From Planctomycetota bacterium (GTDB lineage Bacteria > Planctomycetota > UBA8742 > UBA2392), in NCBI GenBank assembly GCA_025993795.1, contig JAMQHL010000006.1:17397-81396 (forward strand): a stretch of DNA of 64,000 nucleotides, in the 5' to 3' direction. The translations under genes were made by a program, and so were the position numbers. Shown piece after piece: positions 5,602 to 23,811 of this stretch. Each line of letters opens with the position of its first letter. The stretch's first letter is position 1. The notes beneath the pieces were generated by a model that worked only from the letters and a program-made list of their open reading frames with translations, was not told where the DNA came from and made no database searches.

Positions 5602-5832
5602 CTATCCGTCGGCGCCTATGGCTTGCACCGGGCACTGGGCTGCGGCGTCTTCACACTGGGCCTTTTCTTCGCCGCTGTCCGGCTGCTTGTACACCAGGTC
5701 ATGGGTGCCGTCTTCGGACTCGCGGAAATTGTTCGGCGCAAGCTGCGGGCACAAACCGCAGAAAATGCAGCTTTTGTCCACGTACCACGCGCCGGGCACG
5801 TTGTCTTCCCACTTCTCATTCGGGTCAGGCAT
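5602..5832 (-). CDS. Ferredoxin (single Fe-S cluster type)
   Basis: YVDKSCIFCGLCPQLAP ... CPVQAI pattern (CxxCxxC...CP). Confidence 0.9.
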   Translation of the reverse strand: MPDPNEKWEDNVPGAWYVDKSCIFCGLCPQLAPNNFRESEDGTHDLVYKQPDSGEEKAQCEDAAAQCPVQAIGADG

Positions 5833-5968
5833 TGCGGCTCCAGGCTGTCGTCATCGGTATATTATCGGGTTATGCTCTGAATGCCACCGGTGGGTGCGGC
5901 GCGGAGCATACAAACCCACACCATTGAATAAAGCGCCAGAGCATGACGTGATGGGTAAGGAGGAGACC

Positions 5969-6295
5969 ATGGTCAAAAACATCGATATGCAGGACCTGAA
6001 AGACGCCCTCGACGGCGGCCGCGTCGTTGCGCTGTACGACAACCGCGGTCCCGGCAGCTACGGTGCGCGCCATATCAAGGGCGCGAAACTGCTGCCCGTC
6101 AGTGACGTGCGCCCGGAGAATCTGCCCGCCGACAAGGGCGCGATGCTGGTCTTCTACTGATCCGGCTATGCGTGAGACTCCTCTACGAAGGCGGCCCGTG
6201 CGGCTGATGCACTCGGATTCACAAACCTGTGGGACTACCGCGGCGGCATCGCCGAATGGTCCGAAGCCGGCTTGCCCGTCGGCGGCAGCGGTTGA
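5969..6295 (+). CDS. Rhodanese-like protein with two in-frame TGA codons (putative double selenocysteine, UxxxxU), 108 aa
   Basis: Strong RBS AAGGAGGAG before ATG 5969. Reads DNRGPGSYGARHIKGA...LVFY-TGA(6158)-SGYA-TGA(6173)-DSSTKAARAADALGFTNLWDYRGGIAEWSEAGLPV. The complete rhodanese C-terminal signature (GG...W...GLPV) continues in frame after both TGAs. Confidence 0.85.
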
Positions 6296-6369
6296 GATTC
6301 CTGTCCCAATCCTGAACAGTCCGGACTAGAATCCATGCGGACTATCCCGGAACTGAACAGGAGTCGATC

Positions 6370-7416
6370 TTGCTCAAGCGAATGCCCCTATGGGCGCTGG
6401 CAGCAACGTGTGTTGCGCTCGTGGCGCGCTGCGCGCCAGAGCCACAGCCGAACAAACCCGAGCCGGCGCCCAAGGTACAGGGTCTTCCGGTGCCCTACAT
6501 CGCCATCAACGAGCCAACCGCCGACAAGCGGTTTCATGTCTTCCACGGCGACCAGGCACTCACGATCGAGAAGCCCGAACTCCAGCTCGGCCCGCTGCTT
6601 GCGAAGTTCGCCAAGCACAAGGACGAAAAGGCCGGCTATGCAGGCTGGCATGACTCCTATTCAGAGAACGTCCTGTCGCTTCATGTTGCAGCCAATGCAC
6701 CCAGCGGCGACGTCTGGGCAATCCTGTGCGCGGCAGCCGAAGCCGGCATTTACAAGCTGGCGGTCGGCACGCCTGAGCTGATCGGCGAACCGCTGGCTGG
6801 ACCGACGTCGCCGGACTTCGAAAATCTACCGACGGGTTACATGAAGGTGGAGCTGCCCAAGGACGAGGGCCTGAGTTCCGCGCCCAGGGTGCCAAAAGAG
6901 CGGATTACCGCTTACATTAATTGGGACCCTGCGCACCAGGCTGCCAGCGCGGTCGTGGCGATTGACGCGCGCGGTCGCAAGCCCGTGGACGACACGTTTA
7001 CAGTCGTTTCGGACGTCATCCCGACAAAGGGTGACAGCAAGCAGGTGCAGGAAGAGCGCAAGTCGCGGCGCGAAACCTGGATAGACAATGTTTGCAAGGC
7101 GATCGAGGGCTACGTAGCCAAGGCAGGCGGATACATTGGGCGGCTGGAGATCGCGAGCACAGGTGCAAGCAAAGATGACGGGACGCCGCCGTGGGTTTTC
7201 GTGGACCTGACCTGGCAGGCCCTTTCCAAAGCCAACGCGAACCGCGTCAGCGCCGGCAAGGAAGAGCTTGCGATCGTGCTGCCGCCCCAGATGCAGGTCC
7301 CGGAGCCGCCGCCGCCCGAGTTGCCGCCCGAGAGAGGCGTCGAGTTCCCCAGGGACGAACCTGAGCGAGAGGGCCCGACAGAAGACGAACGCATCGTACC
7401 GGACGGCGACGACTGA
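6370..7416 (+). CDS. Putative lipoprotein with an ExbD/TolR-like periplasmic domain and a Pro/Glu-rich tail
   Basis: TTG start with RBS AGGAG; lipobox-like VARC; segment LSLHVAANAPSGDVWAILCAAAEAGIYKLAV resembles the ExbD fold. Confidence 0.55.
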   Translation: MLKRMPLWALAATCVALVARCAPEPQPNKPEPAPKVQGLPVPYIAINEPTADKRFHVFHGDQALTIEKPELQLGPLLAKFAKHKDEKAGYAGWHDSYSENVLSLHVAANAPSGDVWAILCAAAEAGIYKLAVGTPELIGEPLAGPTSPDFENLPTGYMKVELPKDEGLSSAPRVPKERITAYINWDPAHQAASAVVAIDARGRKPVDDTFTVVSDVIPTKGDSKQVQEERKSRRETWIDNVCKAIEGYVAKAGGYIGRLEIASTGASKDDGTPPWVFVDLTWQALSKANANRVSAGKEELAIVLPPQMQVPEPPPPELPPERGVEFPRDEPEREGPTEDERIVPDGDD

Positions 7417-21179: not shown

Positions 21180-22130
21180 ATGCCGCGAGTTCTTGTACTG
21201 CTGTTGATTCTTGCGGCGCCACTGGCGGCGCAGGACACCGAGAGCTTAAGCGGTTCCGTGCCCGGTGATCGACGCCTGACGCTGCTGTATGAAATCGACT
21301 TCGGCCCCGGCAGCACAAGCTGGACGCTGGCTTGCGGCCTTACCACCAACGCCGTTGGCGGCTTGATTGTGCGGCTGATCGACCTCGATGGCCTCGCATC
21401 CAGCGCGGTACCGAACCCGACTTCCGTGGACGAGGCAGTCGTGCTCGGCGCGGGCACAGCCAATGCTGCCCTCAGTGGCAACTACAGCGGCGTACGCGAG
21501 TTTGCAGTTGAGATCGAAACCGCGCAGGGCAGTGCCGCGTCGGACTATTCTGGCAGCCTTACGAGCAATGCCGGACAGATCGAATTCGTGATGCAGGACC
21601 AGATCATTCTTGGGGCCGGCGGCTTGAAGACGGCGGTTAAGCGATTCGCATTCTGGGACGGCACAGTGCCCGCAGGGTCCATCGTGCCGGTTGGCCTTGA
21701 GCTTGATTTCGGCCCGTCGCCACGGACCGTATTTCTGCGCTTCGAGGGTGTGGGCACAAACATGGAGCGCATTGAGCTGTTTGACACCACCGGCGGCTCG
21801 GCATTGTCGCTGGCGACGTTCACCAACCCGACTGGCGGAGACGTCACCGCCGTGCCGCTGACACACAGCGGCAAGGTCTACATTCGCGTGAACTGCAAAG
21901 CGTTCGCGGGCCAGAACGGCAGCGCGGCGTGGGCCATCAACGCGCCCAGCGGCATCAGCGTGCGGCGCGTCGGCAGCAGCGACAACCAGGGCGGCACCAA
22001 GACTGAATGCAGCACCGCGCCGGCACAATCACCGGCGTGGGCGCTGGCACTGCTGTTTGCCGTTGCGGTAGTGTCGCTGCGTCTTGCTGGCACGAAACGA
22101 AGCCGGCCCGTCAAGGTCAACGCGAGTTAG
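21180..22130 (+). CDS. Secreted beta-rich protein with a Cys-containing C-terminal sorting signal
   Basis: Signal peptide MPRVLVLLLILAAPLAA; two internally similar halves (EIDFGP / ELDFGP); C-terminus ECSTAPAQSPAWALALLFAVAVVSLRLAGTKR. Confidence 0.75.
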   Translation: MPRVLVLLLILAAPLAAQDTESLSGSVPGDRRLTLLYEIDFGPGSTSWTLACGLTTNAVGGLIVRLIDLDGLASSAVPNPTSVDEAVVLGAGTANAALSGNYSGVREFAVEIETAQGSAASDYSGSLTSNAGQIEFVMQDQIILGAGGLKTAVKRFAFWDGTVPAGSIVPVGLELDFGPSPRTVFLRFEGVGTNMERIELFDTTGGSALSLATFTNPTGGDVTAVPLTHSGKVYIRVNCKAFAGQNGSAAWAINAPSGISVRRVGSSDNQGGTKTECSTAPAQSPAWALALLFAVAVVSLRLAGTKRSRPVKVNAS

Positions 22131-23320
22131 TACTTGGCGCTGGTGGGGTCTACTTCGTCGCTCCAGCGCAGCATGCCGCCGATCATATTTTTGACTTTGT
22201 GGAAGCCCTGCTCTTTCAGAAAGCGCACGACCTGACCAGATCGCTGGCCGCTGCGTCAGTAGAACACCAGCTCTGCGTCTTTCTTGCTCTCGAGTTCCTG
22301 CCAGCGCTGCCCGAACTCGGGCAGCGGAATCCACGCGTCGTAGGGCAGCTTGCAGATGTCCAGCTCATTGGCGTTGCGCACGTCCACCAGGTACGGCTTG
22401 TCGCCCGCATCCATGCGCGCCTTGAGCTGCGCGGGCGTGATTTCGTCGGCATTCACGGCTGCATTCTCCTGTGCCTGGCGCGCCTTGGCGGCTTCTTCGT
22501 CGTTGGGCACACCGCAGAACTGGTGGTAGTCGATCAGCTCATGGATCGTGCGGTTCTTGCCACAGATCGGGCATTCCGGGTCCTGGCGGATTTTCAGTTC
22601 GCGAAACTTCATGCCAAGCGCGTCAAACACCATCAGGCGGCCTTTCAGCGGCTCACCGATTCCCGTCAGCACCTTGATTGTTTCCAGCGCCTGGATGCAG
22701 CCGACAATCCCCGGCAGCACGCCCAGCACGCCGCCCTCCGCACAGCTTGGCACCATGCCCGGCGGCGGCGGATCAGGGTACAGGCAGCGGTAGCACGGCC
22801 CGCCCGGCAATCCGAACACCGTTGCCTGGCCGTCAAAGCGGAAGATGCTGGCGTAGCTGTTGGGCTTGCCCTCAAGCACACAGGCATCGTTGACTAGATA
22901 GCGCGTCGGAAAGTTATCGGTGCCGTCGGCGACCACGTCGTAGTCGCGCACAATCTGGCGCGCGTTGGCGCTGCTGAGCGCGACCTCATGGATCACGACA
23001 TCCACGTTCGGGTTCAGGTCTTTGATACGGTTCTTTGCGCTGACCACCTTGCGAACACCGACGGTGCTTTGCCCGTGGATAATCTGGCGTTGCAGGTTTG
23101 AAACCTCCACAACGTCGAAGTCCACAATGCCGATGCGGCCGACGCCGGCCGCCGCAAGATACATCGCCAGCGGCGAGCCCAGCCCGCCGGCACCCACGCA
23201 CAGTACGCTGGAGCGTTTGAGTTTCTCCTGCCCGGCTTTGCCGAATTCGGGCAGGATAAGGTGGCGCGCATAGCGCTGAAGTTCTTCGTTGCTCAAAAGC
23301 GGTGCTGCGGTCGCAGTCAT
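22127..23320 (-). CDS. moeB: MoeB/MoeZ-type adenylyltransferase-sulfurtransferase fusion with TGA (putative Sec) at the rhodanese active site, 397 aa
   Basis: RYARHL, GAGGLGS, SNLQRQ, DGTDNF, CYRC and CPIC motifs. The rhodanese domain continues past TGA (22258-22256) as RSGQRSGQVVRFLKEQGFHKVKNMIGGMLRWSDEVDPTSAKY-TAA, the typical MoeZ C-terminus. Confidence 0.92.
22227..22244 (-). promoter_or_regulatory. Putative SECIS hairpin of moeB
   Basis: TGA, an 11-nt spacer, then GCGATCT-GGTC-AGGTCGT (7 bp including G-U pairs). Same spacing and GGUC loop as the E. coli fdhF SECIS. Confidence 0.7.
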
Positions 23321-23811
23321 TGCGAAGTCCCCAAACATCCACGGCCCGTGGAGGCGCAATGGTAGCGCCCGCCGCAGTCCATTCAATCGGCCGACCGGCC
23401 AATGCCGGGTCGGCGTGCCGCGTGCGCAAATGCGCAAACGGGCCATCGGGGGGCCATCGGGTATGAAGTACCGGATGCAGTTGCCGGCGTTGAATTCCGG
23501 CGTTCTTTGTGCTGATGCGCCCGGCCGCAACTGTCAGGCATCTGCCCGGTGCAACAGCGTTGCCCCATCTTGGTTGATCTCAGCCAACTGTCCTTTGGCC
23601 CCATCTACTGCGATGGCGCTCGATGACTTCAGTGCTTGGATGGCGGAGGATGCTCTCAAGTACACGTTGAGCGGCCTTTGCCCTTCGATACTTGTTTGCG
23701 CGCTCGGTTAAGTTCTGTGCGTCGGTCGGCCAGCGTTGTTTCCGTGAATCAACGCAGCTTAGCAGCCTCGAAGGCAGTGCAAACGGGCGCGTTGGTCGCT
23801 AGATTGCCCGG

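Follow-up and report, generated by a model that had tools for sequence, protein, structure and literature searches.

A stand-alone planctomycete rhodanese gene with two conserved in-frame UGA codons, both very probably read as selenocysteine, and one conserved hairpin behind them

The stretch of DNA analysed here (hereafter the window: 64,000 nucleotides of a Planctomycetota bacterium, GenBank assembly GCA_025993795.1, contig JAMQHL010000006.1, positions 17,397 to 81,396 of the forward strand) carries near its start a short open reading frame (ORF) that encodes a rhodanese domain interrupted by two in-frame TGA codons. The TGAs, referred to as UGA1 and UGA2, lie five codons apart in the predicted active-site loop, and a small hairpin follows them within the coding sequence. 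This hairpin is a candidate for the selenocysteine (Sec) insertion sequence, or SECIS. The features at the locus are as follows (nt, nucleotides).

5957-5963, plus strand: Shine-Dalgarno sequence AAGGAGG, 5 nt ahead of the ATG at 5969 (read from the sequence)
5969-6295, plus strand: probable rhodanese selenoprotein gene, single-domain, 108 residues, from ATG 5969 to the true stop TGA at 6293-6295 (from the translation)
6158-6160, plus strand: UGA1, codon 64, predicted Sec at the catalytic-cysteine (Cys) position, opening the active-site loop after strand 59-63
6173-6175, plus strand: UGA2, codon 69, predicted Sec at loop position +5, directly ahead of helix 71-81
6192-6206, plus strand: putative bacterial SECIS core, with a 5-bp stem (6192-6196/6202-6206) and the loop CGUGC at 6197-6201 (RNAalifold)

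With both TGAs read through, the protein is MVKNIDMQ...AMLVFY-U-SGYA-U-DSSTKAARAADALGFTNLWDYRGGIAEWSEAGLPVGGSG (translation of 5969-6295; U stands for Sec and U-SGYA-U is the motif). The Pfam rhodanese profile PF00581 spans residues 7-100, both TGAs included, with an E-value of 2.4e-13 and 50.8 bits against a cut-off of 22.2. An initial annotation, made from the letters of the window, had described a strong ribosome-binding site, a frame with two TGAs and an intact rhodanese C-terminus, and it was exact on all three. The protein is probably cytoplasmic and lacks a signal peptide. We consider it likely that the ORF is a functional stand-alone gene of the rhodanese fold in which both UGAs are decoded as Sec; the single hairpin at 6192-6206 would act as the SECIS, and Sec64 and Sec69 would form a redox pair.

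An AlphaFold2 model of the 108-residue protein reaches a mean predicted local distance difference test score (pLDDT) of 96.7 and a predicted template modelling score of 0.90, and a fold search with this model is topped by rhodanese structures. In the model, the central strand (residues 59-63) leads into the loop (64-70) and this into the helix (71-81), which places Sec64 at the rhodanese catalytic-Cys site and puts Sec69 at the end of the active-site loop of six residues. The best match in the Protein Data Bank is BH2092 of Bacillus halodurans (3nhv; query-normalised template modelling score 0.87, root-mean-square deviation 1.6 A). This protein (3nhv, 3o3w; function unknown) shares both the fold and the loop spacing, and its C-WGPA-C-NGATKAA aligns to the motif.

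Related proteins carry Cys where the two TGAs stand. A profile of 23 orthologs and two paralogs (both described below) was run against 1.84 billion representative proteins, with 22,511 matches at E <=0.001, and 429 domains of the best 150 proteins were re-aligned to it. Cys occupies both columns in 44 of the 45 domains scoring at least 70 bits and in 134 of the 145 scoring at least 50 bits, counts that are biased somewhat upward since the profile itself favours Cys at both columns. Weaker domains show the canonical single-Cys loop. Loops of CxxxxC homologs read ...VFYCGSEECPASGKAARAA... and ...VVYCSSYSCGASTKAAKKL..., and many members of this subfamily are secreted or built of multi-domain repeats. 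As judged from these alignments, the CxxxxC rhodanese subfamily is defined by Cys at both columns, and members with Sec at the second one (CxxxxU) belong to it too. The subfamily that the initial annotation had named, with VFYCxxxxC..S..AA at this place, is thereby recovered with Cys at the very columns of the TGAs.

The two TGAs are old and stable. A six-frame search of 60 relatives returned an ortholog with two internal TGAs in all 22 genomes of the same family (52-89% identity to the protein of the window) and no match above 47 bits in the 38 genomes outside it; a family-wide search then gave an ortholog in 23 of 23 family genomes. The codon alignment shows TGA at the same two positions in every one of the 23 orthologs, which makes the pair more than a chance event, and sequencing error is excluded because 23 independent assemblies agree. 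Around the TGAs the motif LVFY-U-xGxx-U-xxST is invariant, while the true stop codon differs in kind and position and C-terminal lengths vary as well. The median ratio of non-synonymous to synonymous substitution rates (dN/dS; Nei-Gojobori) is 0.38 over the 64 columns before UGA1 (242 of 253 pairs unsaturated) and 0.22 over the 35 columns after UGA2 (245 of 253 pairs). That is, the stretch behind the TGAs is translated and is the more constrained half of the protein, the opposite of the relaxed selection that the initial annotation had named as a sign against recoding. The family consists of uncultured Planctomycetota found in bioreactor, sludge and wastewater runs and, among the genomes searched, the stand-alone UxxxxU rhodanese is confined to it.

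Sequence data from other sources carry the same letters. Two metatranscriptomic libraries of one study yield contigs over 5911/5912-6420, a third RNA library, from a second study, yields one over 5967-6176, and a DNA run covers 6041-6343; for none of them are letters listed that differ from the window. The RNA-library data are contigs in which DNA may be included, and so they stand for presence in RNA libraries and are no proof of transcription.

The genome that carries the window (75 contigs, 3.29 Mb, 85% complete) has the full machinery for Sec insertion. It encodes a tRNA-Sec (69.2 bits; anticodon tca by ARAGORN) together with selB (333 bits), selA (530 bits) and selD (397 bits), all four above their curated cut-offs; selA adjoins the tRNA-Sec gene. 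With this set in place, Cys at the TGA columns of the homologs, both TGAs kept throughout the family and purifying selection downstream, it is very probable that codons 64 and 69 both specify Sec, as the initial annotation had proposed. The selD gene of this genome encodes a selenoprotein itself, with one TGA at HGAG-U-GCK (locus L017; G000:C70:24866-25786, minus strand).

Two simpler explanations of the TGAs fare poorly. Public annotation gives only a 63-residue N-terminal fragment, and one could take this fragment as the whole product or the gene as a pseudogene. The public copies of the protein found in a 5.8-billion-protein collection are in keeping with this: all 12 have 61-64 residues, one of them named rhodanese-related sulfurtransferase and the rest hypothetical protein. 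Yet the pair of TGAs in 23 of 23 genomes, the low dN/dS behind them, the intact fold predicted for the full-length protein and the Sec machinery of the genome make this reading very improbable. It is rather a systematic annotation error that is exposed here, since each database copy found corresponds to a fragment of the double-Sec rhodanese. An alternative genetic code, in which TGA would be a general sense codon of the organism, has the two in-frame codons of the rhodanese gene in its favour and nothing further. TGA terminates 621 of 1432 stop-to-stop frames of at least 400 codons, it ends the rhodanese gene itself, and selA and selB are found without internal stops, which leaves this explanation with next to no probability.

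RNAalifold was applied to 99 nt of the 23 orthologs, beginning 9 nt ahead of UGA1 and ending 87 nt past it; its consensus contains a single structure, the hairpin at 6192-6206, whose loop begins 21 nt past UGA2 and 36 nt past UGA1. Its 5' arm and loop are covered by GCG-GCC-CGT (Ala-Ala-Arg), the only four-fold codons without a synonymous change in the 23 sequences, whereas at the other two conserved Arg columns 19 and 20 of the 23 sequences have CGC, and further conserved four-fold columns show a codon entropy of 0.7-2.0 bits. When orthologs, paralogs and five CxxxxU genes are taken together, 92.4% of 145 cells are paired, compared with 13.8-60.7% when the partner is slid, and 10 of 500 shuffles match that value. 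Three CxxxxU genes were scored as unpaired merely through a loop one base longer or shorter, and one stem pair changes from G:C to C:G in two tandem paralogs. Single-sequence folds placed a hairpin at this site in all 11 sequences tested, with stems of 4-8 bp. The initial annotation had pointed to a hairpin GTGC-GGCTGAT-GCAC at 6198-6212, which is indeed present in the sequence and overlaps the conserved one but is itself not conserved (67.4% of cells paired; equalled by 214 of 500 shuffles). A long-range helix of the single-sequence fold did no better, pairing 65.8% of cells where shuffles pair 65.6%.

Relatives with one Sec or none provide a further comparison. A scan for the best local hairpin in the 48 nt after the second Cys/Sec codon, with counts read from its table by the author, gave the conserved hairpin in 20 of the 23 UxxxxU genes (loop 21-22 nt after UGA2) and a G[G/U] loop 17-25 nt after the UGA in eight of nine CxxxxU genes. 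A homolog from a Geobacter metagenome-assembled genome (MAG), L115, has the loop CGUGU 21 nt after its UGA. In 20 CxxxxC genes the hairpins are scattered over 9-33 nt, with none in two genes, and a G[G/U] loop lies in range in one; under the looser demand of a G at loop position 1 or 2, the number rises to five. The bacterial SECIS model, as summarized in a recent review (PMC13188914), allows a loop of 3-9 nt and an upper stem of 4-16 bp, puts the loop 16-37 nt behind the UGA, asks for a G at loop position 1 or 2, mostly with G or U next to it, and sets -7.5 kcal/mol as the upper limit of the minimum free energy (MFE). With a 5-nt loop, a 5-bp stem, a G at loop position 2 followed by U, and spacings of 21 and 36 nt, the hairpin of the window lies within all of these limits of geometry and loop sequence.

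Three other genes of the window were noted.

5602-5832, minus strand: single-cluster ferredoxin of 76 residues (Pfam Fer4_13, E 1.4e-16), divergent from the rhodanese gene
6370-7416, plus strand: ORF of 348 residues with a lipoprotein-like N-terminus and no Pfam match, 75 nt downstream of the rhodanese gene
22130-23350, minus strand: MoeB/MoeZ-like adenylyltransferase with a rhodanese domain at its C-terminus, in which TGA at 22258-22256 takes the place of the catalytic Cys codon (LVFY-U-RSGQRS)

MoeB with Sec is a known selenoprotein type. In the tabulated forms of the review (forms 2 and 4 and the MoeB row; PMC13188914), MoeB/MoeZ-type and other UxxG selenoproteins have Sec at the catalytic rhodanese Cys, as does the double-Sec rhodanese. 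The MoeB type differs in having a single Sec, in a canonical CxxGxR loop, that alternates with Cys: across the 23 family genomes its codon is TGA in nine of 24 copies and TGC or TGT in 15. By contrast, neither codon of the double-Sec rhodanese has reverted to Cys in any family genome, so that one family offers Sec fixed at both rhodanese positions beside Sec toggling with Cys in MoeB. In seven of the nine Sec-type moeB copies, the loop of the single-sequence MFE fold (GGUC, GGC or GAGG), as read by the author, begins 17-20 nt behind the UGA. The window copy has its MFE loop at 12 nt and, by eye, a second possibility at 18 nt, and the copy of genome G009 has no comparable MFE hairpin but one at 18 nt by eye. 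The spacings come from single-sequence folds, the RNAalifold consensus of the nine Sec-type genes being weak.

Some relatives with one Sec are tandem neighbours of the UxxxxU gene. In two family genomes a tandem paralog of the form VFYC-TxPx-U (CxxxxU) lies directly upstream of the UxxxxU gene, and both carry the same hairpin with the swapped stem pair.

G019, locus L031, 1129-1464, plus strand: tandem CxxxxU paralog
G020, locus L030, 1828-2163, minus strand: tandem CxxxxU paralog

Twenty further loci of the phylum comprise 11 CxxxxC genes, five CxxxxU genes, one with Sec in a canonical loop and three canonical genes with a TGA stop. A pattern scan of one genome per species gave 36 loci, that is, 20 family orthologs and 16 others: nine CxxxxC, two CxxxxU (L115 from the Geobacter MAG and L123 from a Binataceae MAG) and five without a Cys loop. 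Since one of the two scan patterns is unable to match TGA, the scan says little about UxxxxU elsewhere. The paralogs, the 20 phylum loci and the pattern-scan loci include no UxxxxC form. CxxxxU rhodaneses occur in several lineages: L115 and L123 are joined by L083-L086 and L088 from other planctomycete families, and all seven genes have a hairpin at 17-25 nt behind their UGA.

In a quick maximum-likelihood tree of 65 domains (Sec coded as Cys; loci whose domain match covers fewer than 80 profile positions excluded), the 23 UxxxxU genes form one clade (SH-aLRT support 95). Beside it stands a group of the two CxxxxU paralogs and two CxxxxC proteins, with a support of 84 that is not firm. The tree needs about five changes to account for CxxxxU, so that Sec in the second position of the loop appears to have come about roughly five times. 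UxxxxU itself arose once on this tree, at the base of the planctomycete family and within the CxxxxC/CxxxxU subfamily, possibly by direct descent from CxxxxU.

From these observations we lean towards a single hairpin serving both UGAs, a view that fits the expectation of the initial annotation that two UGAs so close together share SECIS information. The hairpin at 6192-6206, with its loop CGUGC inside the coding sequence, would be the SECIS bound by SelB and would serve UGA1 and UGA2 in turn, at a usual 21 nt for UGA2 and at 36 nt, the far edge, for UGA1. Both distances lie inside the published 16-37 nt, and RNAalifold shows no second conserved structure between UGA1 and +90. In the one-Sec relatives the hairpin is placed for the second position, and a SECIS that existed beforehand could have left the upstream Cys codon free to change as well. 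If one element does serve both, SelB of this lineage would tolerate a spacing range of 15 nt, and a second complex of SelB and Sec-tRNA would be loaded onto this hairpin again while no more than four codons are translated. The gene could then be a model for how far a SECIS reaches from its UGA and for how one element handles two codons in quick succession.

Several observations weigh against this picture. The hairpin of the window is weak, at -6.9 kcal/mol against the model limit of -7.5 and with a z-score of 0.13 relative to shuffles, for which reason the case for a SECIS is comparative and not energetic. Of the 20 orthologs in which the conserved hairpin is the best one, 12 pass the energy limit and eight are weaker, and the folding energy of the region is not exceptional (z-score 0.28 over 83 nt). 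The stem is near-invariant in the 23 orthologs, so the covariation rests on the paralogs (two cells). With moeB loops mostly at 17-20 nt, UGA2 at 21 nt is ordinary for the lineage and UGA1 at 36 nt is atypical, and there may be a second, unrecognised signal for UGA1. Nor does the neighbourhood help: the ferredoxin gene lies upstream on the opposite strand in all 23 family loci and is absent from all 16 loci of more distant homologs, which reduces its adjacency to lineage synteny.

The rival explanation that follows is that each UGA needs its own signal, the hairpin at 6192-6206 serving UGA2 alone and some other element or mechanism serving UGA1, for instance a fold that takes in the UGA2 region, or a SelB complex that might remain tethered once it has first bound. 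The moeB spacings favour it, as do the CxxxxU homologs, which position the hairpin for the second site alone. We regard it as unlikely, given that UGA1 too is within the range published in the review, that the consensus offers no other conserved structure and that the long-range helix pairs no better than shuffles. A different kind of rival concerns the protein, in which the two Sec might together chelate a soft metal or metalloid (Hg, As, Cu, Se) and the product be a binding or carrier protein. Two selenolates five residues apart in an anion-binding loop would suit such a role, ArsR-rhodanese fusions occur among the weaker matches of the protein search, and the review table lists a double-Sec metal-binding protein, MbdU (PMC13188914). 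Chelation is the main alternative to a redox pair but an improbable one: no metal-resistance gene adjoins (the neighbours are the ferredoxin, trmB, an unknown protein and valS), and fusions of the close Cys homologs involve thiol-disulfide modules.

These fusions come from a domain scan of 26 multi-domain homologs picked from the 150, which found AhpC-TSA/Redoxin in three and MauE in two; the remaining proteins consist of rhodanese repeats, among them one that also has PEGA and another that has a weak phosphatase-like match. The proteins in which CxxxxC rhodanese repeats are joined to AhpC-TSA/Redoxin or MauE are P0014, P0016 and P0085, and P0018 and P0092. They hint at a role of the CxxxxC subfamily in thiol-disulfide relays. 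Together with TsoB, a fusion of rhodanese and DsbD, they suggest by analogy that the two Sec pair in a redox reaction. For the double-Sec rhodanese, Sec64 at the catalytic position would carry transferred sulfur or selenium or attack the substrate, and Sec69 would resolve the intermediate through an intramolecular diselenide that is later re-reduced. A catalytic Sec64 with a resolving Sec69 that closes a diselenide is, to us, the most likely mechanism, although we give it slightly less than even chances.

Proteins of other families offer parallels. The rhodanese active-site loop is, we take it, structurally comparable to the catalytic loop of low-molecular-weight protein tyrosine phosphatase (LMW-PTP). 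Eukaryotic SelL reportedly carries a UxxU diselenide motif. In both of these proteins two neighbouring Sec or loop Cys form an intramolecular bond, but the analogy is one of chemistry only: SelL and LMW-PTP have folds other than rhodanese, and the spacing in SelL is also different. For LMW-PTP it is Cys12 and Cys17, both in the catalytic site, that are described as forming a reversible intramolecular disulfide (PMC2172955).

Joined into one picture, a minimal SECIS would direct two Sec insertions five codons apart, and the resulting loop would close a diselenide and act as a very low-potential switch or as a carrier of perselenide or persulfide that is indispensable in the family. We offer this combination tentatively and think it somewhat doubtful as a whole; within it, indispensability would follow from the lack of any reversion to Cys at either codon. 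Few proteins have two Sec within one catalytic loop; this one is small, soluble and confidently predicted, which makes it a practical model, possibly also for the role of a diselenide in a rhodanese active site.

Among known selenoproteins, the nearest is TsoB. The review table (2026) lists five rhodanese-like selenoprotein forms, of which form 5 is TsoB (NF045694), with the motif UxxxxU and two Sec, and credits TsoB to Haft & Tolstoy 2025 (PMC13188914). It is also the best NCBIfam match of the double-Sec rhodanese (E 1.7e-12), at 46.3 bits against a cut-off of 805 and over profile positions 62-157 of 572, that is, the rhodanese part only. Identity with TsoB was rejected on these grounds. Both are UxxxxU rhodaneses with two Sec, the TsoB motif being known here from the review table alone (PMC13188914); unlike TsoB, the protein described here has 108 residues and lacks both a DsbD part and a signal peptide. 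Neither the genome nor 401 genomes sampled from the phylum yielded a TsoB above the cut-off. TsoA and TsoC had no match in the genome, a result to be read with the genome being 85% complete and the controls matching nowhere. The 14 longer proteins of the protein search include no rhodanese-DsbD fusion, which is weak evidence. The stand-alone UxxxxU rhodanese would work like the rhodanese domain of TsoB while not being TsoB.

Other entries are more remote. No model of NCBIfam (June 2026 release) reaches its cut-off for the double-Sec rhodanese, and rhodanese_LYCAU (NF041203; form 3, CxU) was set aside at 36.5 bits against a cut-off of 115. Form 1 of the table (UxxS, with a Geobacter example; PMC13188914) carries its Sec in the second position of the loop with xxS after it, as the CxxxxU genes do, and L115 is equated with it by motif alone. 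Form 1 and CxxxxU retain the catalytic Cys, whereas the double-Sec rhodanese has Sec there too. Full-text searches of the literature found no description of a stand-alone UxxxxU rhodanese, and the deep-Sep paper does not mention rhodanese. What is new is therefore the small stand-alone form; the UxxxxU rhodanese motif itself is already listed in the review table for the fused TsoB (PMC13188914).

As for the surroundings of the gene, the ferredoxin upstream has 80-100% identity in all family genomes but one, and 78% in the remaining one. A promoter scan found no sigma-70-like promoter upstream of the rhodanese gene. Intergenic parts have no cover in the RNA-library contigs, a gap that is not readable as a transcript start. 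The contigs of the two RNA libraries from one study start at 5911/5912, 57 nt ahead of the ATG, and these contig ends likewise do not equal a transcript start. At the other end, RNA-library contigs extend from the rhodanese gene into the ORF at 6370-7416.

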